Shown here piece by piece: positions 3,444-40,992 of a stretch of 64,000 nt of DNA. A program made the position numbers and the translations under genes. The notes below the pieces were generated by a model that searched no databases, was not told where the DNA came from, and saw nothing but the letters and a program-made list of their open reading frames with translations. The DNA is from Giardia intestinalis. Taxonomy: Eukaryota. The stretch's first letter is position 1; each line of letters opens with the position of its first letter. The stretch lies in NCBI GenBank assembly GCA_000002435.2, contig CM018792.1. The stretch is one strand, 5' to 3'.

Positions 3444-5186
3444 TCACGCCTTCCCCCTACATATGAACCACCAGCAGAGGAAGCCGACGAGGCCCCCCAC
3501 GACGACGACCACGGCGACGGAGATCCCCGCGATGGCGCCTGTGCTGAGGCCGCTCCTGTTGGTGCCAGAGGACACACACTTACCATTGTCTAGACTGAAG
3601 CCACTGTTGCACTCCCCACATATATTATCCATCACACAGCTCTTACAACCACCCACAGAGCACAGGACACACCCACTGCCGTCCCTGTTGGGCTTCCTAT
3701 CACTGTCACAGGAGGTACACACAGCAGCAGCCATACCACCCTCAGTCAGAGCTGTTGGGGCTGTGCACTGTGAGCAGCCATCCACCCCCACGTATGCCTT
3801 AGCAGTATCACCAGTGCCTGTCAGTGTGCCTAGGGGGTTGCTACAAGCCAACACGGACTGATCAGTGTTGGATGCCCCTGGGACCAGGAAGTACTTATTA
3901 CTTGCTGCCTCTGTGCATATCCCATTACTACTTGATGCCTTGCACATGAAGCTACCTGGTTCTTGACCAACCTTATAACAGCCTCCCATATATAAGAAGT
4001 ACCCTTGAGCACACTGTGTACATGTATGACTGTCACAGGTATTAGTTCCTTTCTTATTATTATCACTAGTACATATACCATCAATAGGGAACTTATTAGC
4101 CTCTCCACAGTAAGAACAATAGTGCTTTGTGGTGCCCTGATCATCTATTATCATGGCATCACAGGCGCCAGAGGTACCACCGCAAGCCGTTGTATCCTCG
4201 CAGGTCTTTGTACATGTGACCCCAGTTGAAGGGGTACCGTTTTGCTTGTAGTTGGGCTTACAGGAGTTGCAGGTCAACGAGCCAGAGAAGGTGCACGTTG
4301 CACATCCATCGATGCCCCCCTGTGCATTATCACAAGCAACGCACTCACCAGTAGGACCACTGCCTTTCATGAAGAATCCAGGCTTGCATTTAGTACACTG
4401 ATTATTGCCAGTTTGAGTGCAGGTGGCACAATTATCACCACAGGCTGCGCATGTAACCGTACCACTACCACTACTGTAGTATCCAGCTAAGCACTCTGAG
4501 CAGGTTGGATTGGCACTTGCTGTCTTCGTGCAAGCCTTACAGCCAGCAATGCCTTTGTTCTTTGGGTCTGATCCGCTGGTATCGCTGCACAAGACACACG
4601 CAGCATCACCATCTGCCTTGAAGTGATCAGCATCCTCGCAGCCAGAGCTTATATCGACGCATGTCGTGGTGCCATCGATGGCCGTCTTCACCTTCTTATT
4701 GTTATTACAGGCGGTGCACTGGGGCTTACTGACAGTCGCATTGTACTTACAGGTAGTACATGCTTGATCTATCGTACTGCATTCCTTGCACGTTCCAGAC
4801 TCTGGGTCTGGATAAACGGTGCTCGTGCATTGATCACTAGTTACGCAAGTCTTATCACCCTTCAAGTACTTCCCCTCTGGACACGATGTGCACTGGGCCG
4901 CCGATGTCTCACAGGTCAGACAAGTACCATCACACTTGCTACATGCCTGAAAGTCCTTGTAGTACCCTGCTTGACAGGCAGTACACGTGGCTGCCCCCTT
5001 ATTACTATCTGACTTGGTGCATGTGGCGCAGTTAGCCACCCCCGTATACCCATCTGCTCCCGTGGCATCATGACAGAGTATGCACTCCCTTCCCTTCTCT
5101 GGTGCTGTAGCAGGGTTCTGGAATACGTACTTGTTATCTGTCTTACAAGCAGTGCACAGTCCATTACTGGCTGCTGTGCATATCAC
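3444..5186 (-). CDS. VSP cassette U1 (family A N-terminal body, C/D-type C-terminal block), 5'-truncated: no signal peptide; ORF opens at GTG
   Basis: 580-aa open frame. ...[16 protein letters not shown] then stop TGA at 3444-3446. Polyadenylation motif ACTCAGGTAGTAAAC at 3430-3444. Begins ICTAASNGLCTAC... with no ATG or signal peptide. Confidence 0.8.
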   Translation of the reverse strand: MICTAASNGLCTACKTDNKYVFQNPATAPEKGRECILCHDATGADGYTGVANCATCTKSDSNKGAATCTACQAGYYKDFQACSKCDGTCLTCETSAAQCTSCPEGKYLKGDKTCVTSDQCTSTVYPDPESGTCKECSTIDQACTTCKYNATVSKPQCTACNNNKKVKTAIDGTTTCVDISSGCEDADHFKADGDAACVLCSDTSGSDPKNKGIAGCKACTKTASANPTCSECLAGYYSSGSGTVTCAACGDNCATCTQTGNNQCTKCKPGFFMKGSGPTGECVACDNAQGGIDGCATCTFSGSLTCNSCKPNYKQNGTPSTGVTCTKTCEDTTACGGTSGACDAMIIDDQGTTKHYCSYCGEANKFPIDGICTSDNNKKGTNTCDSHTCTQCAQGYFLYMGGCYKVGQEPGSFMCKASSSNGICTEAASNKYFLVPGASNTDQSVLACSNPLGTLTGTGDTAKAYVGVDGCSQCTAPTALTEGGMAAAVCTSCDSDRKPNRDGSGCVLCSVGGCKSCVMDNICGECNSGFSLDNGKCVSSGTNRSGLSTGAIAGISVAVVVVVGGLVGFLCWWFICRGKA

Positions 5187-5208
5187 CCACTATCACACAC
5201 TGCACAGC

Positions 5209-5225
5209 ATTCACTACCTAAGTCA
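5209..5225 (-). promoter_or_regulatory. VSP stop codon plus extended polyadenylation signal TGACTTAGGTAGTGAAT (AGTRAAY core); representative of a site repeated after every cassette
   Basis: The motif immediately follows or overlaps the TGA after ...CRGKA in every unit. U1 has ACTCAGGTAGTAAAC at 3430-3444. It matches the conserved Giardia VSP 3' element. Confidence 0.75.
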
Positions 5226-7046
5226 CGCCTTCCCTCTACACACGAACCACCAGCAGAGGAAGCCGACGAGGCCCCCCACGACGGCGACCACAGCCACGGA
5301 GATCCCCGCGATGGCCCCCGCGGAGAGCCCGCTCCTGTTGGCGCCAGAGGACACGCACCTGCCACCCTCTAGTCTGTACCCATCACTGCACTGGCCGCAC
5401 TTGTTCTCCTCGCTGCACCTGACGCACCCGTCGATACTGCAGGCGATGCACTGGGAGCCGTCCAGGCTGGGCCTCTGGTCTTTACTGGTACAGCCCTCGC
5501 ACTTATCGCCTGCTCCACAGTGCGAACATCCACTAACGGTACATGCGAAGCACCCGCTCCCAGCCAGGTTGGGCTTGTTGTTGCCGCTACACGCTGTGCA
5601 CGTGGCGGGGGCCATGCCAGGAGCCTCTAGCTGTGTCGGGGCTGTACATGCTGAGCAGCCATCTACTCCCACATATGCCTTAGCAGTATCACCAGTGCCT
5701 GTCAGTGTGCCTAGGGGGTTGCTACAAGCCAACACGGACTGATCAGTGTTGGATGCCCCTGGGACCAGGAAGTACCTATTGTTGGCCGCCTCTGTGCATA
5801 TCCCACTACTATCTGCTGTCTTGCACATATAGTTGCCAGGCTGAGCTGATACACTATAACAGCCACCCATGTATAGGAAGTACCCCGTAGTACATGATGT
5901 ACAGACATGGTTGTTACAAGTATTACTTTGAGCATCACTATTACATATACCATCGATAGGGAACTTATTGGTCTCTCCACAGTATGAACAATAGTGCTTT
6001 GCATTGCCCTTATCATCTATTATCATGGCATCGCAAGCTCCAGAGGTACCACCACAAGCTGTAGGATCCTCACAAGTCTTGGTACATGTGACAGAGCCAG
6101 GACTGCTATCGCTCTGCTTGCGATAGTTGGGCTTACAATCGGTGCACTTGAAAGTATTGCCATCATTCGAGCAGACACTGCATCCATCGATGCCACCTTT
6201 GGCTGTGTCACTACAAGGGACGCACTCCTTTGTTACACCCTCGGTTTTTAGGAAGTATCCCGGCATGCATTCAGTACATTTGTTAATGTCAGTTTCAGCA
6301 GTACACTTTGCACAGGTATCAGCGCATTTCTTCGTACAAGTATTAGTCTCAAGAAAACGACCCGATAGGCATTCAGAGCACGTTGTTTTGGTACCTGCCT
6401 CCTTGGTGCATTTGTTGCAATCGGCAACACCCTTGTTTGTATTCTCATTATTTCCACTAATATCACCACATAGATAACAGGCTGAGTCATCGTCTGCCTT
6501 GAAGTGATTCTCATCCACACATCCAGAGCTCATATCAACACAGGTTGTCGTTCCATCCAGCTCTGTCTTTACCTTCTTATTACCGCAGTCACTGCATACC
6601 GGCTTCTGTAGCTTTGCATCGTACGTGCAAGCAGTGCACTCTGGTATGCCCCCCTGCTCTGCTGCACCGTTACAGGCTGTGCACTTGCCGGTGCTTGGGT
6701 CGGGGTACTGGTTATTATCGCAGGTTTTTGAGCACGACCCGTCTGACTTCAGATAGAAGCCCGCTTTACAAGATGAACACTGATTCTGACCGGCCCCGGT
6801 ACATGTGGCACAGTTGTCATTACATTTGGTACATGCCTGAGAGTCCATGTAGTATCCATCTCTGCAGGTACTACACGTGGCAGGTCCTGTACTACTGTCT
6901 GACTTGGTACACTGTGCGCAGTTAGCCACCCCCGTATATCCATCTGCTCCATTGATATCGGAGCACAGTATGCACTCCCTTCCCTTCTCTGGTGTTGCAG
7001 CCGGGTTCTTGAACAGGCCGTTAGCTGTATTACACTCAGTGCACAC
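5223..7046 (-). CDS. VSP cassette U2 (family B), 5'-truncated; identical to U5 and U7
   Basis: 607 aa ending [10 protein letters not shown], then TGA and ACTTAGGTAGTGAAT. The ORF 'M' is GTG at 7044-7046. The frame is open upstream only to a TAG in the spacer (W-S-E-I-CTKAEGGVCTEC...). Confidence 0.8.
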   Translation of the reverse strand: MCTECNTANGLFKNPAATPEKGRECILCSDINGADGYTGVANCAQCTKSDSSTGPATCSTCRDGYYMDSQACTKCNDNCATCTGAGQNQCSSCKAGFYLKSDGSCSKTCDNNQYPDPSTGKCTACNGAAEQGGIPECTACTYDAKLQKPVCSDCGNKKVKTELDGTTTCVDMSSGCVDENHFKADDDSACYLCGDISGNNENTNKGVADCNKCTKEAGTKTTCSECLSGRFLETNTCTKKCADTCAKCTAETDINKCTECMPGYFLKTEGVTKECVPCSDTAKGGIDGCSVCSNDGNTFKCTDCKPNYRKQSDSSPGSVTCTKTCEDPTACGGTSGACDAMIIDDKGNAKHYCSYCGETNKFPIDGICNSDAQSNTCNNHVCTSCTTGYFLYMGGCYSVSAQPGNYMCKTADSSGICTEAANNRYFLVPGASNTDQSVLACSNPLGTLTGTGDTAKAYVGVDGCSACTAPTQLEAPGMAPATCTACSGNNKPNLAGSGCFACTVSGCSHCGAGDKCEGCTSKDQRPSLDGSQCIACSIDGCVRCSEENKCGQCSDGYRLEGGRCVSSGANRSGLSAGAIAGISVAVVAVVGGLVGFLCWWFVCRGKA

Positions 7047-7168
7047 TCCTCCCTCAGCCTTTGTACATATCTCACTCCACTATCATACTATCACACGCTA
7101 TCACCCATTATCACCCTCTATCACACATTATCACCCATTATCATCACTCATAGCATTCACTACCTAAG
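7047..7168 (-). repeat. Inter-cassette spacer (122-nt class) made of imperfect GTGATA-rich ~20-nt tandem repeats (minus strand GGGTGATAATGTGTGATAGAGGGTGATAATGGGTGATAGCGTGTGATAGTATGATAGTGGAGTGAG)
   Basis: On the plus strand: tatcacacattatcacccattatcatcac.... It recurs at 10841-10962, 12787-12908, 14604-14725, 16550-16671, 18367-18488, 23903-24024, 31549-31670 and 40871-40992. Shorter 36-, 59- and 67-nt versions occur at the other junctions. Confidence 0.85.
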
Positions 7169-9013
7169 TCACGCCTTCCCTCTACACACGAACCACCAGC
7201 AGAGGAAGCCCACGAGGCCCCCCACGACAGCGACCACAGCCACGGAGATCCCCGCGATGGCCCCCGCGGAGAGCCCGCTCCTGTTGGCGCCAGAGGACAC
7301 GCACCTGCCACCCTCTAGTCTGTACCCATCACTGCACTGGCCGCACTTGTTCTCCTCGCTGCACCTGACGCACCCGTCGATACTGCAGGCGATGCACTGG
7401 GAGCCGTCCAGGCTGGGCCTCTGGTCTTTACTGGTACAGCCCTCGCACTTATCGCCTGCTCCACAGTGCGAACATCCACTAACGGTACATGCGAAGCACC
7501 CGCTCCCAGCCAGGTTGGGCTTGTTGTTGCCGCTACACGCTGTGCACGTGGCGGGGGCCATGCCAGGAGCCTCTAGCTGTGTCGGGGCTGTACATGCTGA
7601 GCAGCCATCTACTCCCACATATGCCTTAGCAGTATCACCAGTGCCTGTCAGTGTGCCTAGGGGGTTGCTACAAGCCAACACGGACTGATCAGTGTTGGAT
7701 GCCCCTGGGACCAGGAAGTACTTATTACTTGCTGCCTCTGTGCATATCCCATTACTACTTGATGCCTTGCACATGAAGCTACCTGGTTCTTGACCAACCT
7801 TATAACAGCCTCCCATATATAAGAAGTACCCTTGAGCACACTGTGTACATGTATGACTGTCACAGGTATTAGTTCCTTTCTTATTATTATCACTAGTACA
7901 TATACCATCAATAGGGAACTTATTAGCCTCTCCACAGTAAGAACAATAGTGCTTTGTGGTGCCCTGATCATCTATTATCATGGCATCACAGGCGCCAGAG
8001 GTACCACCGCAAGCCGTTGTATCCTCGCAGGTCTTTGTACATGTGACCCCAGTTGAAGGGGTACCGTTTTGCTTGTAGTTGGGCTTACAGGAGTTGCAGG
8101 TCAACGAGCCAGAGAAGGTGCACGTTGCACATCCATCGATGCCCCCCTGTGCATTATCACAAGCAACGCACTCACCAGTAGGACCACTGCCTTTCATGAA
8201 GAATCCAGGCTTGCATTTAGTACACTGATTATTGCCAGTTTGAGTGCAGGTGGCACAATTATCACCACAGGCTGCGCATGTAACCGTACCACTACCACTA
8301 CTGTAGTATCCAGCTAAGCACTCTGAGCAGGTTGGATTGGCACTTGCTGTCTTCGTGCAAGCCTTACAGCCAGCAATGCCTTTGTTCTTTGGGTCTGATC
8401 CGCTGGTATCGCTGCACAAGACACACGCAGCATCACCATCTGCCTTGAAGTGATCAGCATCCTCGCAGCCAGAGCTTATATCGACGCATGTCGTGGTGCC
8501 ATCGATGGCCGTCTTCACCTTCTTATTGTTATTACAGGCGGTGCACTGGGGCTTACTGACAGTCGCATTGTACTTACAGGTAGTACATGCTTGATCTATC
8601 GTACTGCATTCCTTGCACGTTCCAGACTCTGGGTCTGGATAAACGGTGCTCGTGCATTGATCACTAGTTACGCAAGTCTTATCACCCTTCAAGTACTTCC
8701 CCTCTGGACACGATGTGCACTGGGCCGCCGATGTCTCACAGGTCAGACAAGTACCATCACACTTGCTACATGCCTGAAAGTCCTTGTAGTACCCTGCTTG
8801 ACAGGCAGTACACGTGGCTGCCCCCTTATTACTATCTGACTTGGTGCATGTGGCGCAGTTAGCCACCCCCGTATACCCATCTGCTCCCGTGGCATCATGA
8901 CAGAGTATGCACTCCCTTCCCTTCTCTGGTGCTGTAGCAGGGTTCTGGAATACGTACTTGTTATCTGTCTTACAAGCAGTGCACAGTCCATTACTGGCTG
9001 CTGTGCATATCAC
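7169..9013 (-). CDS. VSP cassette U3 (A body + B C-terminal block), 5'-truncated
   Basis: 614 aa. Identical to U1 up to ...AKAYVGVDGCS, then switches to the B-type tail ACTAPTQLEAPGMAPATC...SDGYRLEGGRCVSSGANRSG. CRGKA tail and polyA motif present. Confidence 0.8.
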   Translation of the reverse strand: MICTAASNGLCTACKTDNKYVFQNPATAPEKGRECILCHDATGADGYTGVANCATCTKSDSNKGAATCTACQAGYYKDFQACSKCDGTCLTCETSAAQCTSCPEGKYLKGDKTCVTSDQCTSTVYPDPESGTCKECSTIDQACTTCKYNATVSKPQCTACNNNKKVKTAIDGTTTCVDISSGCEDADHFKADGDAACVLCSDTSGSDPKNKGIAGCKACTKTASANPTCSECLAGYYSSGSGTVTCAACGDNCATCTQTGNNQCTKCKPGFFMKGSGPTGECVACDNAQGGIDGCATCTFSGSLTCNSCKPNYKQNGTPSTGVTCTKTCEDTTACGGTSGACDAMIIDDQGTTKHYCSYCGEANKFPIDGICTSDNNKKGTNTCDSHTCTQCAQGYFLYMGGCYKVGQEPGSFMCKASSSNGICTEAASNKYFLVPGASNTDQSVLACSNPLGTLTGTGDTAKAYVGVDGCSACTAPTQLEAPGMAPATCTACSGNNKPNLAGSGCFACTVSGCSHCGAGDKCEGCTSKDQRPSLDGSQCIACSIDGCVRCSEENKCGQCSDGYRLEGGRCVSSGANRSGLSAGAIAGISVAVVAVVGGLVGFLCWWFVCRGKA

Positions 9014-9049
9014 CCACTATCACACACTGCACAGCATTCACTACCTAAG

Positions 9050-10840
9050 TCACGCCTTCCCTCTACACACGAACCACCAGCAGAGGAAGCCGACGAGGCC
9101 CCCCACGACGGCGACCACAGCCACGGAGATCCCCGCGATGGCGCCCGTGGAGAGCCCGCTCCTGTTGGTGCTCGTAGACACACAGGAGGTCCCACTGCTG
9201 TCAGGGCTGTATCCACTGTTGCACACACAGACAGAGTTATCATCAGTGGAGTTGCTGGGGCAGCCATCCACGCATGACTTCCTCCCAGGGCTCACCTTCT
9301 TACCACTACTACACACCTCGCACATGTCATCCCTGTTGCAGTGGGAGCATCCACTAATGGCACATGAGAAGCACCCACTGCCGTCCCTGTTGGGCTTCCT
9401 ATCACTGTCACAGGAGGTACACACAGCAGCAGCCATACCACCCTCAGTCAGAGCTGTTGGGGCTGTGCACTGTGAGCAGCCATCCACCCCCACGTATGCC
9501 TTAGCAGTACCTTGAGGGTCTACTAGTGTGCCTAGGGGGTTGCCACAGGCTAGTACAGACTGATCAGTAGCCTTTGCTTCTGGGACTACGAAGTACCTAT
9601 CATTGGCATTGGGAGTAGTACAGACACCAGCTGTTGTTGCTTCGGAGCACATGAGGCTACCAGGCACCTCTGTTGCTTTATAACAGCCACCCATATAGAG
9701 GAAGTAGTTGTTGGTGCACCGCGTACATACACCATCGGCGCAGGTATTACCTGCAAGTGCATTGGTGCACTTCCCATTAATGGGGCCATAGCCGGCGCCA
9801 ACACACTTTGAACAGTAAGAGAGCATGCTGCCGTCGTTGCCGACCACGATGGCGTCGCAGGCCCCTGCTGTCCCCCCGCATGCAGTCTCATCTTCACAGG
9901 TCTTTGTACACGTATAGTCATCCCCTGCATCTCCATTAAGCTGTTTCTTATAGTTAGGCTTACAGTCAGTACATTTGAATCCACCACTGTTAGAGCATGC
10001 ACTGCACCCATCGCGGCCACCATTTGCTGTATCACTACATGAGATGCACTCACCAGAGGAGCTATCCTTCAAGAAGTACCCTTGCTTGCAGGTCGTGCAT
10101 TGGTCTTTTGTATCCTTAGCACAGGTGGCACAGTTCTCACCACAGGCTGTGCATGTAGCGGTATTACCACTTGCACTATTGTAATATCCATCGAGGCACT
10201 TTGTACATGTAGTTTTAGAGGAGCAGGTATCACAACCTAGAATCCCACCATTTTTAGTATCACCACATGGAACACAAGCTTTTGGAGATTGTTCAAGGAA
10301 GTGCGTATTGCCACTTGTGCACTCTGCCTCCGCAACACACGTCGCTGACCCATCGGGGTTCACCTTAAGAAGCAGGTTTCCTCCACTATTACACCCAGTG
10401 CACACAGGCTTCTGAAGAGTGTCGCTGTATGCACACGTAGCACATTCATTGACACTTGTGTCCGTGCAGGCCTTGCATTGGCCTGTTTTTGGGTCTGCAT
10501 ACTTACCATTGTCACATTGATTAGCATCCACACACTTGTCAGCCTTCAGGAACTTCCCCTCAACGCAGGCGGTACACTGAGTCGGAGTATCAGCTGAGCA
10601 GGCAGAGCAGCCCTCTCCGCACTTCACACATGCACTGTCCTTCTTAACGAACCCATCTTGACAGGCAGTACATGTGACAGGTCCTGCACTCTGTGGTGCC
10701 TGACACTGTGCGCAGTTAGCCACCCCCGTATATCCATCTGCTCCCTTGATATCATGACAGAGGATGCACTCACTACCCTTCTCTGGTGTTGCAGCAGGGT
10801 TCTTGAACAGGCCGTTATCTGCCTTACAAGTAGTGCACAC
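9050..10840 (-). CDS. VSP cassette U4 (family C with long C-terminal variant), 5'-truncated
   Basis: 596 aa beginning CTTCKADNGLFKNPAATPEKGSECILCHDIKGADGY. C-terminal block ...CFSCAISGCSHCNRDDMCEVCSSGKKVSPGRKSCVDGCPSNSTDDNSVCVCNSGYSPDSSGTSCVSTSTNRSG..CRGKA. Confidence 0.8.
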   Translation of the reverse strand: MCTTCKADNGLFKNPAATPEKGSECILCHDIKGADGYTGVANCAQCQAPQSAGPVTCTACQDGFVKKDSACVKCGEGCSACSADTPTQCTACVEGKFLKADKCVDANQCDNGKYADPKTGQCKACTDTSVNECATCAYSDTLQKPVCTGCNSGGNLLLKVNPDGSATCVAEAECTSGNTHFLEQSPKACVPCGDTKNGGILGCDTCSSKTTCTKCLDGYYNSASGNTATCTACGENCATCAKDTKDQCTTCKQGYFLKDSSSGECISCSDTANGGRDGCSACSNSGGFKCTDCKPNYKKQLNGDAGDDYTCTKTCEDETACGGTAGACDAIVVGNDGSMLSYCSKCVGAGYGPINGKCTNALAGNTCADGVCTRCTNNYFLYMGGCYKATEVPGSLMCSEATTAGVCTTPNANDRYFVVPEAKATDQSVLACGNPLGTLVDPQGTAKAYVGVDGCSQCTAPTALTEGGMAAAVCTSCDSDRKPNRDGSGCFSCAISGCSHCNRDDMCEVCSSGKKVSPGRKSCVDGCPSNSTDDNSVCVCNSGYSPDSSGTSCVSTSTNRSGLSTGAIAGISVAVVAVVGGLVGFLCWWFVCRGKA

Positions 10841-10962
10841 TCCTCCCTCAGCCTTTGTACATATCTCACTCCACTATCATACTATCACACACTATCACCC
10901 ATTATCACCCTCTATCACACATTATCACCCATTATCATCACTCATAGCATTCACTACCTAAG

Positions 10963-12786
10963 TCACGCCTTCCCTCTACACACGAACCACCAGCAGAGGA
11001 AGCCCACGAGGCCCCCCACGACAGCGACCACAGCCACGGAGATCCCCGCGATGGCCCCCGCGGAGAGCCCGCTCCTGTTGGCGCCAGAGGACACGCACCT
11101 GCCACCCTCTAGTCTGTACCCATCACTGCACTGGCCGCACTTGTTCTCCTCGCTGCACCTGACGCACCCGTCGATACTGCAGGCGATGCACTGGGAGCCG
11201 TCCAGGCTGGGCCTCTGGTCTTTACTGGTACAGCCCTCGCACTTATCGCCTGCTCCACAGTGCGAACATCCACTAACGGTACATGCGAAGCACCCGCTCC
11301 CAGCCAGGTTGGGCTTGTTGTTGCCGCTACACGCTGTGCACGTGGCGGGGGCCATGCCAGGAGCCTCTAGCTGTGTCGGGGCTGTACATGCTGAGCAGCC
11401 ATCTACTCCCACATATGCCTTAGCAGTATCACCAGTGCCTGTCAGTGTGCCTAGGGGGTTGCTACAAGCCAACACGGACTGATCAGTGTTGGATGCCCCT
11501 GGGACCAGGAAGTACCTATTGTTGGCCGCCTCTGTGCATATCCCACTACTATCTGCTGTCTTGCACATATAGTTGCCAGGCTGAGCTGATACACTATAAC
11601 AGCCACCCATGTATAGGAAGTACCCCGTAGTACATGATGTACAGACATGGTTGTTACAAGTATTACTTTGAGCATCACTATTACATATACCATCGATAGG
11701 GAACTTATTGGTCTCTCCACAGTATGAACAATAGTGCTTTGCATTGCCCTTATCATCTATTATCATGGCATCGCAAGCTCCAGAGGTACCACCACAAGCT
11801 GTAGGATCCTCACAAGTCTTGGTACATGTGACAGAGCCAGGACTGCTATCGCTCTGCTTGCGATAGTTGGGCTTACAATCGGTGCACTTGAAAGTATTGC
11901 CATCATTCGAGCAGACACTGCATCCATCGATGCCACCTTTGGCTGTGTCACTACAAGGGACGCACTCCTTTGTTACACCCTCGGTTTTTAGGAAGTATCC
12001 CGGCATGCATTCAGTACATTTGTTAATGTCAGTTTCAGCAGTACACTTTGCACAGGTATCAGCGCATTTCTTCGTACAAGTATTAGTCTCAAGAAAACGA
12101 CCCGATAGGCATTCAGAGCACGTTGTTTTGGTACCTGCCTCCTTGGTGCATTTGTTGCAATCGGCAACACCCTTGTTTGTATTCTCATTATTTCCACTAA
12201 TATCACCACATAGATAACAGGCTGAGTCATCGTCTGCCTTGAAGTGATTCTCATCCACACATCCAGAGCTCATATCAACACAGGTTGTCGTTCCATCCAG
12301 CTCTGTCTTTACCTTCTTATTACCGCAGTCACTGCATACCGGCTTCTGTAGCTTTGCATCGTACGTGCAAGCAGTGCACTCTGGTATGCCCCCCTGCTCT
12401 GCTGCACCGTTACAGGCTGTGCACTTGCCGGTGCTTGGGTCGGGGTACTGGTTATTATCGCAGGTTTTTGAGCACGACCCGTCTGACTTCAGATAGAAGC
12501 CCGCTTTACAAGATGAACACTGATTCTGACCGGCCCCGGTACATGTGGCACAGTTGTCATTACATTTGGTACATGCCTGAGAGTCCATGTAGTATCCATC
12601 TCTGCAGGTACTACACGTGGCAGGTCCTGTACTACTGTCTGACTTGGTACACTGTGCGCAGTTAGCCACCCCCGTATATCCATCTGCTCCATTGATATCG
12701 GAGCACAGTATGCACTCCCTTCCCTTCTCTGGTGTTGCAGCCGGGTTCTTGAACAGGCCGTTAGCTGTATTACACTCAGTGCACAC
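10963..12786 (-). CDS. VSP cassette U5 (family B), identical to U2 and U7
   Basis: The 607-aa translation is identical to U2 and U7. CRGKA tail present. Confidence 0.8.
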   Translation of the reverse strand: MCTECNTANGLFKNPAATPEKGRECILCSDINGADGYTGVANCAQCTKSDSSTGPATCSTCRDGYYMDSQACTKCNDNCATCTGAGQNQCSSCKAGFYLKSDGSCSKTCDNNQYPDPSTGKCTACNGAAEQGGIPECTACTYDAKLQKPVCSDCGNKKVKTELDGTTTCVDMSSGCVDENHFKADDDSACYLCGDISGNNENTNKGVADCNKCTKEAGTKTTCSECLSGRFLETNTCTKKCADTCAKCTAETDINKCTECMPGYFLKTEGVTKECVPCSDTAKGGIDGCSVCSNDGNTFKCTDCKPNYRKQSDSSPGSVTCTKTCEDPTACGGTSGACDAMIIDDKGNAKHYCSYCGETNKFPIDGICNSDAQSNTCNNHVCTSCTTGYFLYMGGCYSVSAQPGNYMCKTADSSGICTEAANNRYFLVPGASNTDQSVLACSNPLGTLTGTGDTAKAYVGVDGCSACTAPTQLEAPGMAPATCTACSGNNKPNLAGSGCFACTVSGCSHCGAGDKCEGCTSKDQRPSLDGSQCIACSIDGCVRCSEENKCGQCSDGYRLEGGRCVSSGANRSGLSAGAIAGISVAVVAVVGGLVGFLCWWFVCRGKA

Positions 12787-12908
12787 TCCTCCCTCAGCCT
12801 TTGTACATATCTCACTCCACTATCATACTATCACACACTATCACCCATTATCACCCTCTATCACACATTATCACCCATTATCATCACTCATAGCATTCAC
12901 TACCTAAG

Positions 12909-14603
12909 TCACGCCTTCCCTCTACACACGAACCACCAGCAGAGGAAGCCCACGAGGCCCCCCACGACAGCGACCACAGCCACGGAGATCCCCGCGATGG
13001 CCCCCGCGGAGAGCCCGCTCCTGTTGGCGCCAGAGGACACACACTTACCATTGTCTAGACTGAAGCCACTGTTGCACTCCCCACACACACCGTCCACCAC
13101 ACAGCTCTTACAACCACCCACAGAGCACAGGACACACCCACTGCCGTCCCTGTTGGGCTTCCTATCACTGTCACAGGAGGTACACACAGCAGCAGCCATA
13201 CCACCCTCAGTCAGAGCTGTTGGGGCTGTGCACTGTGAGCAGCCATCCACCCCCACGTATGCCTTAGCAGTACCTTGAGGGTCTACTAGTGTGCCTAGGG
13301 GGTTGCCACAGGCTAGTACAGACTGATCAGTAGCCTTTGCTTCTGGGACTACGAAGTACCTATCATTGGCATTGGGAGTAGTACAGACACCAGCTGTTGT
13401 TGCTTCGGAGCACATGAGGCTACCAGGCACCTCTGTTGCTTTATAACAGCCACCCATATAGAGGAAGTAGTTGTTGGTGCACCGCGTACATACACCATCG
13501 GCGCAGGTATTACCTGCAAGTGCATTGGTGCACTTCCCATTAATGGGGCCATAGCCGGCGCCAACACACTTTGAACAGTAAGAGAGCATGCTGCCGTCGT
13601 TGCCGACCACGATGGCGTCGCAGGCCCCTGCTGTCCCCCCGCATGCAGTCTCATCTTCACAGGTCTTTGTACACGTATAGTCATCCCCTGCATCTCCATT
13701 AAGCTGTTTCTTATAGTTAGGCTTACAGTCAGTACATTTGAATCCACCACTGTTAGAGCATGCACTGCACCCATCGCGGCCACCATTTGCTGTATCACTA
13801 CATGAGATGCACTCACCAGAGGAGCTATCCTTCAAGAAGTACCCTTGCTTGCAGGTCGTGCATTGGTCTTTTGTATCCTTAGCACAGGTGGCACAGTTCT
13901 CACCACAGGCTGTGCATGTAGCGGTATTACCACTTGCACTATTGTAATATCCATCGAGGCACTTTGTACATGTAGTTTTAGAGGAGCAGGTATCACAACC
14001 TAGAATCCCACCATTTTTAGTATCACCACATGGAACACAAGCTTTTGGAGATTGTTCAAGGAAGTGCGTATTGCCACTTGTGCACTCTGCCTCCGCAACA
14101 CACGTCGCTGACCCATCGGGGTTCACCTTAAGAAGCAGGTTTCCTCCACTATTACACCCAGTGCACACAGGCTTCTGAAGAGTGTCGCTGTATGCACACG
14201 TAGCACATTCATTGACACTTGTGTCCGTGCAGGCCTTGCATTGGCCTGTTTTTGGGTCTGCATACTTACCATTGTCACATTGATTAGCATCCACACACTT
14301 GTCAGCCTTCAGGAACTTCCCCTCAACGCAGGCGGTACACTGAGTCGGAGTATCAGCTGAGCAGGCAGAGCAGCCCTCTCCGCACTTCACACATGCACTG
14401 TCCTTCTTAACGAACCCATCTTGACAGGCAGTACATGTGACAGGTCCTGCACTCTGTGGTGCCTGACACTGTGCGCAGTTAGCCACCCCCGTATATCCAT
14501 CTGCTCCCTTGATATCATGACAGAGGATGCACTCACTACCCTTCTCTGGTGTTGCAGCCGGGTTCTTGAACAGGCCGTTAGCTGTATTACACTCAGTGCA
14601 CAC
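12909..14603 (-). CDS. VSP cassette U6 (B-type first 22 aa, C body, short C/D tail), 5'-truncated
   Basis: 564 aa. Starts CTECNTANGLFKNPAATPEKG (B), then SECILCHDIKGADGY... (C). Tail ...CVLCSVGGCKSCVVDGVCGECNSGFSLDNGKCVSSGANRSG..CRGKA. Confidence 0.8.
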   Translation of the reverse strand: MCTECNTANGLFKNPAATPEKGSECILCHDIKGADGYTGVANCAQCQAPQSAGPVTCTACQDGFVKKDSACVKCGEGCSACSADTPTQCTACVEGKFLKADKCVDANQCDNGKYADPKTGQCKACTDTSVNECATCAYSDTLQKPVCTGCNSGGNLLLKVNPDGSATCVAEAECTSGNTHFLEQSPKACVPCGDTKNGGILGCDTCSSKTTCTKCLDGYYNSASGNTATCTACGENCATCAKDTKDQCTTCKQGYFLKDSSSGECISCSDTANGGRDGCSACSNSGGFKCTDCKPNYKKQLNGDAGDDYTCTKTCEDETACGGTAGACDAIVVGNDGSMLSYCSKCVGAGYGPINGKCTNALAGNTCADGVCTRCTNNYFLYMGGCYKATEVPGSLMCSEATTAGVCTTPNANDRYFVVPEAKATDQSVLACGNPLGTLVDPQGTAKAYVGVDGCSQCTAPTALTEGGMAAAVCTSCDSDRKPNRDGSGCVLCSVGGCKSCVVDGVCGECNSGFSLDNGKCVSSGANRSGLSAGAIAGISVAVVAVVGGLVGFLCWWFVCRGKA

Positions 14604-14725
14604 TCCTCCCTCAGCCTTTGTACATATCTCACTCCACTATCATACTATCACACGCTATCACCCATTATCACCCTCTATCACACATTATCACCCATTATCA
14701 TCACTCATAGCATTCACTACCTAAG

Positions 14726-16549
14726 TCACGCCTTCCCTCTACACACGAACCACCAGCAGAGGAAGCCCACGAGGCCCCCCACGACAGCGACCACAGCCAC
14801 GGAGATCCCCGCGATGGCCCCCGCGGAGAGCCCGCTCCTGTTGGCGCCAGAGGACACGCACCTGCCACCCTCTAGTCTGTACCCATCACTGCACTGGCCG
14901 CACTTGTTCTCCTCGCTGCACCTGACGCACCCGTCGATACTGCAGGCGATGCACTGGGAGCCGTCCAGGCTGGGCCTCTGGTCTTTACTGGTACAGCCCT
15001 CGCACTTATCGCCTGCTCCACAGTGCGAACATCCACTAACGGTACATGCGAAGCACCCGCTCCCAGCCAGGTTGGGCTTGTTGTTGCCGCTACACGCTGT
15101 GCACGTGGCGGGGGCCATGCCAGGAGCCTCTAGCTGTGTCGGGGCTGTACATGCTGAGCAGCCATCTACTCCCACATATGCCTTAGCAGTATCACCAGTG
15201 CCTGTCAGTGTGCCTAGGGGGTTGCTACAAGCCAACACGGACTGATCAGTGTTGGATGCCCCTGGGACCAGGAAGTACCTATTGTTGGCCGCCTCTGTGC
15301 ATATCCCACTACTATCTGCTGTCTTGCACATATAGTTGCCAGGCTGAGCTGATACACTATAACAGCCACCCATGTATAGGAAGTACCCCGTAGTACATGA
15401 TGTACAGACATGGTTGTTACAAGTATTACTTTGAGCATCACTATTACATATACCATCGATAGGGAACTTATTGGTCTCTCCACAGTATGAACAATAGTGC
15501 TTTGCATTGCCCTTATCATCTATTATCATGGCATCGCAAGCTCCAGAGGTACCACCACAAGCTGTAGGATCCTCACAAGTCTTGGTACATGTGACAGAGC
15601 CAGGACTGCTATCGCTCTGCTTGCGATAGTTGGGCTTACAATCGGTGCACTTGAAAGTATTGCCATCATTCGAGCAGACACTGCATCCATCGATGCCACC
15701 TTTGGCTGTGTCACTACAAGGGACGCACTCCTTTGTTACACCCTCGGTTTTTAGGAAGTATCCCGGCATGCATTCAGTACATTTGTTAATGTCAGTTTCA
15801 GCAGTACACTTTGCACAGGTATCAGCGCATTTCTTCGTACAAGTATTAGTCTCAAGAAAACGACCCGATAGGCATTCAGAGCACGTTGTTTTGGTACCTG
15901 CCTCCTTGGTGCATTTGTTGCAATCGGCAACACCCTTGTTTGTATTCTCATTATTTCCACTAATATCACCACATAGATAACAGGCTGAGTCATCGTCTGC
16001 CTTGAAGTGATTCTCATCCACACATCCAGAGCTCATATCAACACAGGTTGTCGTTCCATCCAGCTCTGTCTTTACCTTCTTATTACCGCAGTCACTGCAT
16101 ACCGGCTTCTGTAGCTTTGCATCGTACGTGCAAGCAGTGCACTCTGGTATGCCCCCCTGCTCTGCTGCACCGTTACAGGCTGTGCACTTGCCGGTGCTTG
16201 GGTCGGGGTACTGGTTATTATCGCAGGTTTTTGAGCACGACCCGTCTGACTTCAGATAGAAGCCCGCTTTACAAGATGAACACTGATTCTGACCGGCCCC
16301 GGTACATGTGGCACAGTTGTCATTACATTTGGTACATGCCTGAGAGTCCATGTAGTATCCATCTCTGCAGGTACTACACGTGGCAGGTCCTGTACTACTG
16401 TCTGACTTGGTACACTGTGCGCAGTTAGCCACCCCCGTATATCCATCTGCTCCATTGATATCGGAGCACAGTATGCACTCCCTTCCCTTCTCTGGTGTTG
16501 CAGCCGGGTTCTTGAACAGGCCGTTAGCTGTATTACACTCAGTGCACAC
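14726..16549 (-). CDS. VSP cassette U7 (family B), identical to U2 and U5
   Basis: 607-aa translation identical to U2 and U5. The 3763-bp period U5+U6 = U7+U8 marks a higher-order repeat. Confidence 0.8.
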   Translation of the reverse strand: MCTECNTANGLFKNPAATPEKGRECILCSDINGADGYTGVANCAQCTKSDSSTGPATCSTCRDGYYMDSQACTKCNDNCATCTGAGQNQCSSCKAGFYLKSDGSCSKTCDNNQYPDPSTGKCTACNGAAEQGGIPECTACTYDAKLQKPVCSDCGNKKVKTELDGTTTCVDMSSGCVDENHFKADDDSACYLCGDISGNNENTNKGVADCNKCTKEAGTKTTCSECLSGRFLETNTCTKKCADTCAKCTAETDINKCTECMPGYFLKTEGVTKECVPCSDTAKGGIDGCSVCSNDGNTFKCTDCKPNYRKQSDSSPGSVTCTKTCEDPTACGGTSGACDAMIIDDKGNAKHYCSYCGETNKFPIDGICNSDAQSNTCNNHVCTSCTTGYFLYMGGCYSVSAQPGNYMCKTADSSGICTEAANNRYFLVPGASNTDQSVLACSNPLGTLTGTGDTAKAYVGVDGCSACTAPTQLEAPGMAPATCTACSGNNKPNLAGSGCFACTVSGCSHCGAGDKCEGCTSKDQRPSLDGSQCIACSIDGCVRCSEENKCGQCSDGYRLEGGRCVSSGANRSGLSAGAIAGISVAVVAVVGGLVGFLCWWFVCRGKA

Positions 16550-16671
16550 TCCTCCCTCAGCCTTTGTACATATCTCACTCCACTATCATACTATCACACA
16601 CTATCACCCATTATCACCCTCTATCACACATTATCACCCATTATCATCACTCATAGCATTCACTACCTAAG

Positions 16672-18366
16672 TCACGCCTTCCCTCTACACACGAACCACC
16701 AGCAGAGGAAGCCCACGAGGCCCCCCACGACAGCGATGACAGCGACGGAGATCCCCGCGATGGCCCCCGTGGAGAGCCCGCTCCTGTTGGCGCCAGAGGA
16801 CACACACTTACCATTGTCTAGACTGAAGCCACTGTTGCACTCCCCACACACACCGTCCACCACACAGCTCTTACAACCACCCACAGAGCACAGGACACAC
16901 CCACTGCCGTCCCTGTTGGGCTTCCTATCACTGTCACAGGAGGTACACACAGCAGCAGCCATACCACCCTCAGTCAGAGCTGTTGGGGCTGTGCACTGTG
17001 AGCAGCCATCCACCCCCACGTATGCCTTAGCAGTACCTTGAGGGTCTACTAGTGTGCCTAGGGGGTTGCCACAGGCTAGTACAGACTGATCAGTAGCCTT
17101 TGCTTCTGGGACTACGAAGTACCTATCATTGGCATTGGGAGTAGTACAGACACCAGCTGTTGTTGCTTCGGAGCACATGAGGCTACCAGGCACCTCTGTT
17201 GCTTTATAACAGCCACCCATATAGAGGAAGTAGTTGTTGGTGCACCGCGTACATACACCATCGGCGCAGGTATTACCTGCAAGTGCATTGGTGCACTTCC
17301 CATTAATGGGGCCATAGCCGGCGCCAACACACTTTGAACAGTAAGAGAGCATGCTGCCGTCGTTGCCGACCACGATGGCGTCGCAGGCCCCTGCTGTCCC
17401 CCCGCATGCAGTCTCATCTTCACAGGTCTTTGTACACGTATAGTCATCCCCTGCATCTCCATTAAGCTGTTTCTTATAGTTAGGCTTACAGTCAGTACAT
17501 TTGAATCCACCACTGTTAGAGCATGCACTGCACCCATCGCGGCCACCATTTGCTGTATCACTACATGAGATGCACTCACCAGAGGAGCTATCCTTCAAGA
17601 AGTACCCTTGCTTGCAGGTCGTGCATTGGTCTTTTGTATCCTTAGCACAGGTGGCACAGTTCTCACCACAGGCTGTGCATGTAGCGGTATTACCACTTGC
17701 ACTATTGTAATATCCATCGAGGCACTTTGTACATGTAGTTTTAGAGGAGCAGGTATCACAACCTAGAATCCCACCATTTTTAGTATCACCACATGGAACA
17801 CAAGCTTTTGGAGATTGTTCAAGGAAGTGCGTATTGCCACTTGTGCACTCTGCCTCCGCAACACACGTCGCTGACCCATCGGGGTTCACCTTAAGAAGCA
17901 GGTTTCCTCCACTATTACACCCAGTGCACACAGGCTTCTGAAGAGTGTCGCTGTATGCACACGTAGCACATTCATTGACACTTGTGTCCGTGCAGGCCTT
18001 GCATTGGCCTGTTTTTGGGTCTGCATACTTACCATTGTCACATTGATTAGCATCCACACACTTGTCAGCCTTCAGGAACTTCCCCTCAACGCAGGCGGTA
18101 CACTGAGTCGGAGTATCAGCTGAGCAGGCAGAGCAGCCCTCTCCGCACTTCACACATGCACTGTCCTTCTTAACGAACCCATCTTGACAGGCAGTACATG
18201 TGACAGGTCCTGCACTCTGTGGTGCCTGACACTGTGCGCAGTTAGCCACCCCCGTATATCCATCTGCTCCCTTGATATCATGACAGAGGATGCACTCACT
18301 ACCCTTCTCTGGTGTTGCAGCAGGGTTCTTGAACAGGCCGTTATCTGCCTTACAAGTAGTGCACAC
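16672..18366 (-). CDS. VSP cassette U8 (family C), near-identical to U6
   Basis: 564 aa. Differs from U6 only in the first ~8 aa and in the TM region (STGAIAGISVAVIAVV). Confidence 0.8.
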   Translation of the reverse strand: MCTTCKADNGLFKNPAATPEKGSECILCHDIKGADGYTGVANCAQCQAPQSAGPVTCTACQDGFVKKDSACVKCGEGCSACSADTPTQCTACVEGKFLKADKCVDANQCDNGKYADPKTGQCKACTDTSVNECATCAYSDTLQKPVCTGCNSGGNLLLKVNPDGSATCVAEAECTSGNTHFLEQSPKACVPCGDTKNGGILGCDTCSSKTTCTKCLDGYYNSASGNTATCTACGENCATCAKDTKDQCTTCKQGYFLKDSSSGECISCSDTANGGRDGCSACSNSGGFKCTDCKPNYKKQLNGDAGDDYTCTKTCEDETACGGTAGACDAIVVGNDGSMLSYCSKCVGAGYGPINGKCTNALAGNTCADGVCTRCTNNYFLYMGGCYKATEVPGSLMCSEATTAGVCTTPNANDRYFVVPEAKATDQSVLACGNPLGTLVDPQGTAKAYVGVDGCSQCTAPTALTEGGMAAAVCTSCDSDRKPNRDGSGCVLCSVGGCKSCVVDGVCGECNSGFSLDNGKCVSSGANRSGLSTGAIAGISVAVIAVVGGLVGFLCWWFVCRGKA

Positions 18367-18488
18367 TCCTCCCTCAGCCTTTGTACATATCTCACTCCAC
18401 TATCATACTATCACACACTATCACCCATTATCACCCTCTATCACACATTATCACCCATTATCATCACTCATAGCATTCACTACCTAAG

Positions 18489-20333
18489 TCACGCCTTCCC
18501 TCTACACACGAACCACCAGCAGAGGAAGCCCACGAGGCCCCCCACGACAGCGACCACAGCCACGGAGATCCCCGCGATGGCCCCCGCGGAGAGCCCGCTC
18601 CTGTTGGCGCCAGAGGACACGCACCTGCCACCCTCTAGTCTGTACCCATCACTGCACTGGCCGCACTTGTTCTCCTCGCTGCACCTGACGCACCCGTCGA
18701 TACTGCAGGCGATGCACTGGGAGCCGTCCAGGCTGGGCCTCTGGTCTTTACTGGTACAGCCCTCGCACTTATCGCCTGCTCCACAGTGCGAACATCCACT
18801 AACGGTACATGCGAAGCACCCGCTCCCAGCCAGGTTGGGCTTGTTGTTGCCGCTACACGCTGTGCACGTGGCGGGGGCCATGCCAGGAGCCTCTAGCTGT
18901 GTCGGGGCTGTACATGCTGAGCAGCCATCTACTCCCACATATGCCTTAGCAGTATCACCAGTGCCTGTCAGTGTGCCTAGGGGGTTGCTACAAGCCAACA
19001 CGGACTGATCAGTGTTGGATGCCCCTGGGACCAGGAAGTACTTATTACTTGCTGCCTCTGTGCATATCCCATTACTACTTGATGCCTTGCACATGAAGCT
19101 ACCTGGTTCTTGACCAACCTTATAACAGCCTCCCATATATAAGAAGTACCCTTGAGCACACTGTGTACATGTATGACTGTCACAGGTATTAGTTCCTTTC
19201 TTATTATTATCACTAGTACATATACCATCAATAGGGAACTTATTAGCCTCTCCACAGTAAGAACAATAGTGCTTTGTGGTGCCCTGATCATCTATTATCA
19301 TGGCATCACAGGCGCCAGAGGTACCACCGCAAGCCGTTGTATCCTCGCAGGTCTTTGTACATGTGACCCCAGTTGAAGGGGTACCGTTTTGCTTGTAGTT
19401 GGGCTTACAGGAGTTGCAGGTCAACGAGCCAGAGAAGGTGCACGTTGCACATCCATCGATGCCCCCCTGTGCATTATCACAAGCAACGCACTCACCAGTA
19501 GGACCACTGCCTTTCATGAAGAATCCAGGCTTGCATTTAGTACACTGATTATTGCCAGTTTGAGTGCAGGTGGCACAATTATCACCACAGGCTGCGCATG
19601 TAACCGTACCACTACCACTACTGTAGTATCCAGCTAAGCACTCTGAGCAGGTTGGATTGGCACTTGCTGTCTTCGTGCAAGCCTTACAGCCAGCAATGCC
19701 TTTGTTCTTTGGGTCTGATCCGCTGGTATCGCTGCACAAGACACACGCAGCATCACCATCTGCCTTGAAGTGATCAGCATCCTCGCAGCCAGAGCTTATA
19801 TCGACGCATGTCGTGGTGCCATCGATGGCCGTCTTCACCTTCTTATTGTTATTACAGGCGGTGCACTGGGGCTTACTGACAGTCGCATTGTACTTACAGG
19901 TAGTACATGCTTGATCTATCGTACTGCATTCCTTGCACGTTCCAGACTCTGGGTCTGGATAAACGGTGCTCGTGCATTGATCACTAGTTACGCAAGTCTT
20001 ATCACCCTTCAAGTACTTCCCCTCTGGACACGATGTGCACTGGGCCGCCGATGTCTCACAGGTCAGACAAGTACCATCACACTTGCTACATGCCTGAAAG
20101 TCCTTGTAGTACCCTGCTTGACAGGCAGTACACGTGGCTGCCCCCTTATTACTATCTGACTTGGTGCATGTGGCGCAGTTAGCCACCCCCGTATACCCAT
20201 CTGCTCCCGTGGCATCATGACAGAGTATGCACTCATTACCAGGGGTCACCTTCTCTGCCCCATTCTGGAATATGTACTGGTTATCTGTCTTACAAGCAGT
20301 GCACACTCCATCCTTGGCTGCTGTGCATATCAT
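18489..20333 (-). CDS. VSP cassette U9 (D-type first ~35 aa, A body, B tail); fortuitous ATG, no signal peptide
   Basis: 614 aa. MICTAAKDGVCTACKTDNQYIFQNGAEKVTPGNECILCHDATGADGY, then A-type body, then B-type C-terminal block. ATG at 20331-20333 but no signal sequence. Confidence 0.8.
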   Translation of the reverse strand: MICTAAKDGVCTACKTDNQYIFQNGAEKVTPGNECILCHDATGADGYTGVANCATCTKSDSNKGAATCTACQAGYYKDFQACSKCDGTCLTCETSAAQCTSCPEGKYLKGDKTCVTSDQCTSTVYPDPESGTCKECSTIDQACTTCKYNATVSKPQCTACNNNKKVKTAIDGTTTCVDISSGCEDADHFKADGDAACVLCSDTSGSDPKNKGIAGCKACTKTASANPTCSECLAGYYSSGSGTVTCAACGDNCATCTQTGNNQCTKCKPGFFMKGSGPTGECVACDNAQGGIDGCATCTFSGSLTCNSCKPNYKQNGTPSTGVTCTKTCEDTTACGGTSGACDAMIIDDQGTTKHYCSYCGEANKFPIDGICTSDNNKKGTNTCDSHTCTQCAQGYFLYMGGCYKVGQEPGSFMCKASSSNGICTEAASNKYFLVPGASNTDQSVLACSNPLGTLTGTGDTAKAYVGVDGCSACTAPTQLEAPGMAPATCTACSGNNKPNLAGSGCFACTVSGCSHCGAGDKCEGCTSKDQRPSLDGSQCIACSIDGCVRCSEENKCGQCSDGYRLEGGRCVSSGANRSGLSAGAIAGISVAVVAVVGGLVGFLCWWFVCRGKA

Positions 20334-20392
20334 ACTCCACTATCACCCTCTATCACACACTATCACACACTGTACAGCATTCACTACCTAAG

Positions 20393-33428: not shown

Positions 33429-33495
33429 ACTCCACTATCACACTATCACCCTCTATTACCCATTATCACACATTGTATAGCATTCACTACCTAAG

Positions 33496-35229: not shown

Positions 35230-35265
35230 CCACTATCACACATTGTACAGCATTCACTACCCAAG

Positions 35266-37032: not shown

Positions 37033-37099
37033 ACTCCACTATCACACATTATCACACTATCACCTTCTATCACACATTGTACAGCATTCACTACCTAAG

Positions 37100-39070: not shown

Positions 39071-39082
39071 TCACTACCTAAG

Positions 39083-40870: not shown

Positions 40871-40992
40871 TCCTCCCTCAGCCTTTGTACATATCTCACT
40901 CCACTATCATACTATCACACACTATCACCCATTATCACCCTCTATCACACATTATCACCCATTATCATCACTCATAGCATTCACTACCTAAG

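Follow-up and report, generated by a model that had tools for sequence, protein, structure and literature searches.

How does a tandem array of surface-antigen gene copies come to hold units that match to the last nucleotide, and what are such units for? The question arises from a 64,000-nt stretch of Giardia intestinalis isolate WB (assembly GCA_000002435.2, contig CM018792.1; hereafter the window), in which an earlier description made from the DNA letters alone (the sequence-only reading) had pointed to a perfect 3,763-bp higher-order repeat and to a further pair of identical units. We found that both belong to one linear array of sequences for variant-specific surface proteins (VSPs). Giardia varies these antigens in order to persist in the gut. 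We consider it probable that the array, one head gene followed by 21 presumably silent cassettes, has been reshaped by homology-driven duplication and exchange and may serve as a reservoir.

Giardia VSPs are recognized by a Cys-rich ectodomain with many CXXC motifs and by a C-terminal transmembrane segment with the invariant CRGKA tail. Each of the 22 units ends in the tail ...CWWF(V/L/I)CRGKA and a stop, followed by CTYRGGTAGTRA, the Giardia VSP poly(A) signal, and the string CRGKA-TGA-CTYRGGTAGTRA recurs 22 times in the array at a spacing of 1.77-1.98 kb. The Pfam VSP model PF03302 matched U5 (E=8.7e-32), U6 (3.9e-38) and U22 (7.4e-44). All units lie on the minus strand; an inverted-repeat scan found no inverted repeats, and an Rfam scan gave no match. 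The array and its units, beginning with the head gene, are as follows.

3444-44887, minus strand: the VSP linear array in full, 41,444 nt with 22 units head to tail
42818-44887, minus strand: U22, head gene and sole complete VSP, 689 aa
40993-42817, minus strand: U21, pseudo-VSP of D type, same as U16
39083-40992, minus strand: U20, pseudo-VSP with a C-type 5' part and a mosaic 3' part
37100-39082, minus strand: U19, pseudo-VSP with a longer 5' junction (MLYSDSDS...LLFMGGCY)
35266-37099, minus strand: U18, pseudo-VSP, mosaic of F and E types
33496-35265, minus strand: U17, pseudo-VSP with an A-type 5' part; its 3' 253 nt are those of U22
31671-33495, minus strand: U16, pseudo-VSP of D type, same as U21
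29716-31670, minus strand: U15, pseudo-VSP, B type at the 5' end and mosaic at the 3' end; exact tracts cover 1954 of its 1955 nt
27868-29715, minus strand: U14, pseudo-VSP that has in common with U13 a 54-nt deletion and a frameshifting 1-nt deletion
25999-27867, minus strand: U13, pseudo-VSP with two 1-nt deletions, one in a C5 run
24025-25998, minus strand: U12, pseudo-VSP with a longer 5' junction and, in common with U22, an exact tract of 1089 nt
22210-24024, minus strand: U11, pseudo-VSP of C type with two 1-nt deletions (frameshift), one in an A5 run
20393-22209, minus strand: U10, pseudo-VSP of D type, 16 nt differences from U16
18489-20392, minus strand: U9, pseudo-VSP with an A-type body; its 3' 553 nt are B-type, the same as those of U5, U7 and U3
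16672-18488, minus strand: U8, pseudo-VSP of C type, higher-order repeat copy 2
14726-16671, minus strand: U7, pseudo-VSP of B type, higher-order repeat copy 2, equal to U5 including the upstream spacer
12909-14725, minus strand: U6, C-type pseudo-VSP and unique chimera within higher-order repeat copy 1
10963-12908, minus strand: U5, pseudo-VSP of B type, higher-order repeat copy 1
9050-10962, minus strand: U4, pseudo-VSP; C-type 5' part equal to U8 over 1591 nt, different 3' end
7169-9049, minus strand: U3, pseudo-VSP, A/B chimera with 98% identity to U9
5223-7168, minus strand: U2, B-type pseudo-VSP that departs from U5 and U7 at 2 synonymous sites
3444-5222, minus strand: U1, pseudo-VSP of A type, the last unit, followed by unique non-repeat DNA

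By the standard of Xu 2020, a signal peptide together with a proper ATG, U22 is a VSP gene and U1-U21 are not. The signal peptide of U22 is MFQLIPLFVASALMAA, and its first 17 residues are hydrophobic, with a mean Kyte-Doolittle (KD) value of 1.96; U1-U21 have hydrophilic N termini without a genuine start codon, the presence of a signal peptide being judged by N-terminal KD hydropathy. Because they have neither signal peptide nor genuine start, we class U1-U21 as pseudo-VSPs rather than VSP genes. Nineteen of these 21 truncated units begin at the equivalent of U22 codon ~105 (GSEICT); in U12 and U19 the junction (LLFMGGCY) lies ~14 codons farther upstream, and an ATG stands immediately behind the poly(A) signal of the unit before. 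A bacterial reading of the open reading frames (ORFs) was rejected: their GTG and TTG "starts" are an artefact of the translation table 11 ORF rule, and the frames are open from the last stop in the spacer.

An uninterrupted frame of 564-656 codons is present in 18 of the 21 truncated units. The frameshifted cassettes are U11, U13, and U14, which carry 1-nt deletions, two of them in homopolymers (A5 to A4 and C5 to C4). The 1-nt deletions of U11 and U13 may be assembly errors; the 1-nt deletion common to U13 and U14, which comes with the common 54-nt deletion, looks genuine and spread by duplication. Spacers between units measure 12, 36, 59, 67, or 122 nt and keep one design across these forms, of which the longest is illustrated by the following.

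12787-12908, minus strand: 122-nt spacer, with the poly(A) signal CTTAGGTAGTGAAT, then ~10-nt GTGATARNGN repeats and lastly the remnant codons SEICTKAEGG

This spacer has 7 stops in each frame. In all, GTGATARTG occurs 60 times against 1.65 expected. The ~10-nt period of the GTGATARNGN repeats shifts the frame by one with each repeat. Since they are absent from U1, the last unit, and from a singleton VSP of isolate DH described below, the repeats are specific to array junctions.

Within this array, we mapped the higher-order repeat and the sites at which its copies differ.

9372-19041, minus strand: two-unit (C+B) higher-order repeat of period 3763 bp, full extent, 2.57 copies
12974-13007, minus strand: exchange patch with 4 of the 12 repeat-copy differences, at the 3' end of U6 versus U8
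14559-14654, minus strand: exchange patch region with 8 of the 12 differences, made up of the U6 5' end (14559-14594) and a spacer single-nucleotide polymorphism (SNP) at 14654; U6 carries B/U2-type alleles

Much of what the sequence-only reading had said of these units was confirmed. U5 (10963-12786) and U7 (14726-16549) agree at 1824 of 1824 nt and share their 607-aa translation with U2 (5223-7046), which differs at two synonymous sites, 5265 and 5283; U6 is indeed nearly identical to U8, with 11 nt and 6 aa differences grouped at both ends. The repeat itself is real but not perfect, as had been claimed, because 10963-14725 and 14726-18488 are separated by 12 substitutions and no indels (99.68% identity), in three patches. 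Nor does it stop at 10963-18488, a span that proved too narrow: the full extent was obtained from identity runs at offsets of 3763 and 7526, outside which identity falls to ~25%. U4 provides a partial third copy. Over 2144 nt the two partial copies, the first and the third, are 100% identical, and the middle copy departs from either one at 8 positions, the same in each case.

The 99.68% identity at offset 3763 stands against 66-67% between adjacent U5/U6-type units, and adjacent units of different type are generally 65-70% identical, compared with 99.7-100% for the repeat copies, so the repeat is not a product of chance. An independent repeat finder gave the same spacings, with identities of either ~100% or 60-80%; Tandem Repeats Finder reported nothing, the period lying beyond its 500-nt limit. 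The period is not iterated many times: there are 2.57 copies only, and the rest of the array is made of single-unit copies and mosaics.

All 14 differences, 12 between the repeat copies and 2 between U2 and U5, are alleles found in other units, and for that reason we regard the differences between repeat copies as exchange patches and not as private mutations. U6 is the clearest case. It joins a U2-type spacer SNP and a B-type first ~45 nt (its B/U2-like 5' patch) to a C body and a B-like 3' patch, and has B-type units on both sides.

The second duplication concerns U16 and U21.

31540-33748, minus strand: 2209-nt exact tract, copy 1, U16 with both junctions
40862-43070, minus strand: 2209-nt exact tract, copy 2, U21 with both junctions

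The two copies lie 9.3 kb apart, and each takes in a 67-nt spacer with 253 nt of the neighboring unit (U17 or U22) and, on the other side, a 122-nt spacer. The identity of the two 585-aa units, of the 67-nt spacer and of the start of the neighbor had been noted correctly. The antisense ORFs at 33416-33913 and 42738-43235 had been called the same, yet 19 nt and 7 aa separate them, all beyond position 33748. The U16/U21 identity would fit a one-unit copy event with breakpoints in the conserved 3' tail and the spacer. Antisense ORFs were rejected as genes, both the 274-aa and the 165-aa series, as they have no Pfam match and mirror the sense units; they are by-products of VSP codon composition and recur only through the sense units. 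The 274-aa "TTG" ORFs, on the plus strand at 10658-11482, 14421-15245, 18184-19008, and 23720-24544, lie antisense to the 3' ends of units with B-type tails.

Two features had escaped the sequence-only reading: the units are 5'-truncated VSP pseudogene cassettes behind one intact VSP, and exchange is array-wide rather than confined to the 3763-bp repeat. An alignment of the 22 units resolved each segment into ~6 diverged lineages (A-F) that are 62-75% identical to each other and have been recombined in blocks. Windowed pairwise identity is bimodal, with 13.6% of pair-windows at 99.5% or more, 1% at 98-99.5%, and the bulk at 50-80%. We counted 94 exact tracts of at least 150 nt common to different units. 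Exact repeats of at least 100, 500, and 1000 nt take up 96%, 84%, and 73% of the array, respectively, and 29.7% of its 31-mers are distinct, so that the 41 kb comes down to ~12 kb of unique sequence. Exact tracts of other units cover 99.9-100% of U12, U15, and U19, the last being wholly tiled by U12, U13, U18, U3/U9, and U15. Tract boundaries fall in conserved islands, in segments better conserved between lineages than those at random positions (0.727 versus 0.682 ± 0.014), with none of 2000 random sets as high, which is what homology-dependent exchange predicts. Between lineages, dS (synonymous divergence) was 0.37-1.30 and dN/dS (the nonsynonymous-to-synonymous ratio) 0.25-0.43, and 65 of 78 cysteine columns are invariant. 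From the low dN/dS and the invariant cysteines, we infer that the lineages diverged as protein-coding sequences; present-day selection on the cassettes does not follow from dN/dS.

The head gene and its upstream region tie this mosaic to a gene that can be expressed.

44883-44889, minus strand: VSP initiator TAATGTT, spanning the U22 ATG; sole YAATGTT in the window
44888-46200, minus strand: GC-rich (64-69%) non-coding region of ~1.3 kb, upstream of U22
Tracts tiling U22: U15, 153 nt; U1/U3/U9/U17, 152 nt; U12, 1089 nt; U14, 71 nt; U17, 253 nt

U22 is 99.7% identical to the database entry VSP P0050. The next gene upstream is ~2.8 kb away, ~1.3 kb of which is GC-rich. The initiator belongs to the PyAATGTT motif defined in Adam 2010 (PMC2996952); shuffled sequences predicted 14 ± 4 occurrences of YAATGTT in the window, against the one observed. 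The GC-rich block, measured at 44600-46200, also takes in the first ~290 nt of U22, and neighboring genes have ~40-47% GC. Exact cassette tracts account for most of U22 between nt 347 and nt 2070 (~codon 116 to the stop); the initial 346 nt of the gene, encoding the signal peptide and N terminus, occur nowhere else in the array. Promoterless truncated cassettes that share segments with an expression-competent gene, here as exact tracts of 71-1089 nt, are thus found at this locus. The tiling supports, without proving, the idea of a cassette reservoir, from which the head gene, or other VSP genes, would receive copied blocks and so give rise to new antigen variants over evolutionary time.

We compared isolate WB (sub-assemblage AI) with isolate DH (AII), setting positions 1-22547 of DH contig AHGT01000028 against window positions 44908-55076. 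The two isolates are 97.37% identical over the 10 kb that lies upstream of U22, and synteny holds to ~20 nt before the U22 ATG. At this site, DH has a single 848-aa VSP with ~60% protein identity to U22 and at most 80% nucleotide identity to any unit, followed by a normal 3' flank and an acyltransferase gene; the DH syntenic site contains no pseudo-VSP array, GTGATAG spacer, or gene for a high-cysteine membrane protein (HCMP). To judge from this synteny, the coding content at a conserved expression site appears to have been replaced between sub-assemblages, the array having been either gained, lost, or left unassembled.

With no difference in 2209 nt, divergence has an upper bound (95%) of ~0.14%. 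Set against the AI-AII flank divergence, this would place the U16/U21 copy event at less than ~5% of the age of the AI-AII split, and the same would hold for the 2.1-kb tracts within the 3763-bp repeat. Alternatively, the U16/U21 units and the repeat tracts may have been re-homogenized since then.

What kind of event would produce this pattern? We propose exchange between misaligned units, that is, unequal crossover between sister chromatids or homologues, which would alter copy number and make chimeric units, together with short gene-conversion patches. The 3763-bp repeat would then reflect a very recent duplication of a C+B two-unit block: an ancestral U9-C-B-U4 order may have held 1.57 periods, and one unequal exchange within the common 2.1 kb would have extended it to 2.57, additional conversion events being required for the two end patches of U6. 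A single unequal crossover (U8 x U4, or B x C at the 5' end) was rejected as the origin of the repeat, as it does not reproduce those patches. The sequence-only reading had proposed a very recent unequal crossover or amplification. Recency is upheld by tracts of 2.1-2.2 kb without a private substitution, while the flanking DNA differs by 2.6% between AI and AII. Unequal crossover by itself is not, given three patches with alleles of other units and unexplained U6 ends; because the 12 differences form such patches, gene conversion or further exchanges probably took part.

Several points weigh against a reservoir shaped by homology-driven exchange. The copy number and exact identities come from one PacBio RS II/Quiver assembly, in which polishing with misplaced reads could turn near-identical copies into identical ones, and in DH, an older draft, assembly could in principle account for the missing array. 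One unequal crossover fails for the ends of U6, and extra events are assumed. In 14 of the 22 units no alignment column holds a private allele, which speaks for exchange, but mutations that coincide with a diverged unit can escape such a count by column. Sequence could also have been copied out of the head gene rather than into it. Finally, three cassettes are frameshifted, and the low dN/dS may be inherited from functional ancestors.

One alternative, which we think somewhat unlikely, is that the downstream units are discarded, roleless VSP remnants under passive concerted evolution, with only incidental sharing with the head gene. Such remnants would account for units without start codon, initiator, or signal peptide, for three frameshifted units with one frameshift spread by duplication between U13 and U14 in either direction, and for an array that is dispensable, being absent at the DH syntenic site. 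"Remains of discarded vsp genes" were listed as an alternative in Adam 2010 (PMC2996952), and the pseudo-VSPs of Giardia muris are not transcribed (PMC7641422). Remnants fit less well with long open frames kept in 18 of 21 units, with a lineage dN/dS of 0.25-0.43 and conserved cysteines, or with a head gene in whose variable body exact cassette tracts form a patchwork, although all of these would still be compatible with very young junk.

A reservoir could also be put to faster use. We raise only tentatively the proposal that the array is an active donor archive, in which segmental conversion into U22 or other VSPs makes mosaic antigens on short time scales. If so, it would add a DNA-level route of diversification beside epigenetic or RNA-based switching in Giardia, and the higher-order repeat and the identical units would be footprints of the same ongoing recombination.

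We judge it improbable that the extra periods and identical units were made or homogenized by the assembler, by stitching, or by Quiver/Illumina polishing, the true locus having fewer or less identical units. The WB reference, for which HGAP3, PBJelly, Quiver, and overlap stitching were used, was built from PacBio RS II continuous long reads (200x, read N50 12.7 kb, 10% longer than 20 kb). Its authors report homopolymer frameshift errors and give ~20 kb as the largest resolvable duplication, and several frameshifts in U11 and U13 are 1-nt homopolymer deletions. Structural variants within isolate WB are enriched at VSPs. Exact look-up of the pseudo-VSP ORFs U9, U10, U12, and U19 found no identical protein in a collection of 15 billion proteins. 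Four Logan short-read contigs that carry the neighboring 272-aa gene, two identical to WB and two ~99% identical to it, end before the array at 46124, 46131, 46138, and 46597 (~1.2-1.7 kb upstream of the U22 start, at the outer edge of the GC block), and none of the four enters it; such ends suggest a repeated element or GC-related coverage loss. An artefact is nevertheless difficult to reconcile with 12 patterned substitutions, without indels and with alleles common to other units, which are unlike one consensus placed twice, or with U6, a unique chimera between B-type units that implies at least two periods. In addition, the 9.7-kb repeat is shorter than the 12.7-kb read N50 at 200x, the U16/U21 pair is within reach too, and the scaffolds agreed with optical maps. 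The caution on copy number that the sequence-only reading had urged is reasonable. Short reads cannot assemble or map the locus, and its unit counts and SNPs are unsuited to typing or expression quantification without spanning long reads.

RNA interference (RNAi) control of VSP expression was reportedly described by Prucca et al. in 2008. That the cassettes act as RNA, their read-through or own transcripts feeding RNAi- or microRNA-type VSP silencing, or act through internal ATGs, with copy number tuning dosage, is nonetheless highly improbable to us: every unit keeps the VSP poly(A) signal, U12 and U19 have their ATG behind that of the preceding unit, and the UniProt entry "VSP S6" (390 aa) equals U10 residues 196-585 exactly, but no promoter-like initiator precedes any downstream unit, the products would have no signal peptide, the antisense ORFs lack a family match and mirror the sense units, and the homologous G. 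muris arrays are reported to be transcriptionally silent (PMC7641422).

Returning to a reservoir of cassettes, which would probably be untranscribed, we note further what the databases hold on the array and its surroundings. A search of proteins for U5 homologues returned nothing above 66% identity. The UniProt entry Q8I8W3, "Variant-specific surface protein S6", matches U10 at 100% over aa 196-585 (20393-21565), starting from an internal Met; if the clone is a cDNA, a cassette sequence is transcribed. In an older annotation, XP_001703902.1 (645 aa) resembles an intact chimera that combines a U12-type start (MLYSDSDS...) with a U13-type body (95% identity) and a U13-type tail. It is not present as such in the window, where U12 and U13 occupy 24025-27867, and would stem either from a paralogue elsewhere or, as a collapsed chimera, from the Sanger assembly.

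The array lies between ordinary genes, whose products match G. intestinalis WB-C6 proteins exactly: SOF1 (KAE8304469), thymidine kinase (KAE8304467), the hypothetical protein GL50803_0095406 (KAE8304464), and HCMP group 4 (KAE8304459), all encoded on a 2,761,001-bp contig of the PacBio reference. The HCMP gene (817 aa, 302-2755, minus strand) adjoins the array directly downstream; its product matched the VSP Pfam model, yet bears another cytoplasmic tail in place of CRGKA. The protein collection has this exact sequence from one contig only, and an exact look-up of U22 and HCMP in the contig index gave no match.

How does this locus compare with known systems? Linear arrays of vsp genes and pseudo-VSPs have been described in G. 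intestinalis by Adam 2010 (PMC2996952) and Xu 2020 (PMC7000408), who defined them by at least two (Xu: more than three) adjacent same-strand units with intergenic distances of ~60 bp on average and up to 241 bp. The present array has 22 same-strand units with spacers of 12-122 nt, and an extended upstream region with PyAATGTT at U22 only. It resembles the published arrays in its head-to-tail units and short gaps, in the initiator and extended upstream region of the first member only, in downstream members without start codon, initiator, or signal peptide, and in the long 100%-identical stretches that members share. Duplication and recombination were already invoked for those arrays, and the locus lies on chromosome 4 of the same isolate. 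It differs from those of Adam 2010 in length, the longest array then resolvable having 10 units, and in the arrangement of identical genes, which were seen there only as inverted pairs and are here in tandem. The class of array and the idea of duplication and recombination are published, and the sequence stands in an annotated public reference, so the locus is known in kind. The accounts of Adam 2010 and Xu 2020 do not spell out the two-unit period, the tandem byte-identical units, how redundant the array is, or how far its cassettes tile the head gene.

The reservoir idea was first proposed in Adam 2010 (PMC2996952) and echoed for G. muris (PMC7641422), whose pseudo-VSPs are untranscribed and exchange sequence with VSPs (Xu 2020, PMC7641422). 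The G. muris arrays likewise consist of pseudogenized VSPs without signal peptides; almost all of them are adjacent to telomeres, with tails ending in GCRGK, unlike this array, which is internal and ends its units in CRGKA. To the extent that its arrangement can be read in this way, the array would support the long-standing idea of a cassette reservoir. It offers a concrete example, in that unique cassette sequence has been reshuffled to more than three times its length and the intact neighbor is built largely from the same blocks.

The identity pattern also recalls the higher-order repeats of satellite DNA such as alpha-satellite: copies of the multi-unit period (C+B, 3763 bp) agree at ~99.7-100% and adjacent monomers at only ~66%, as expected from unequal exchange. 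The present repeat differs from alpha-satellite in having few copies, in monomers that are coding-derived cassettes of 1.8-1.9 kb, and in having no evident structural chromosomal role.

Silent-cassette systems are known from the variant surface glycoprotein (VSG) pseudogene arrays and mosaic VSGs of Trypanosoma brucei, vlsE/vls of Borrelia, pilE/pilS of Neisseria, msp2 of Anaplasma, and the major surface glycoprotein (MSG) genes of Pneumocystis. Giardia, unlike these, has more than 100 independently expressible VSP genes, and it switches between VSPs by means regarded as epigenetic or post-transcriptional, with no rearrangement of DNA. We know of no demonstration of programmed unidirectional conversion in Giardia. 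The likeness to the silent-cassette systems would accordingly be one of architecture rather than of demonstrated mechanism, but it extends to several parts of that architecture: promoterless, 5'-truncated donors near an expression-competent copy, a mosaic expressed gene, and apparently homology-driven exchange bounded by conserved sequence.

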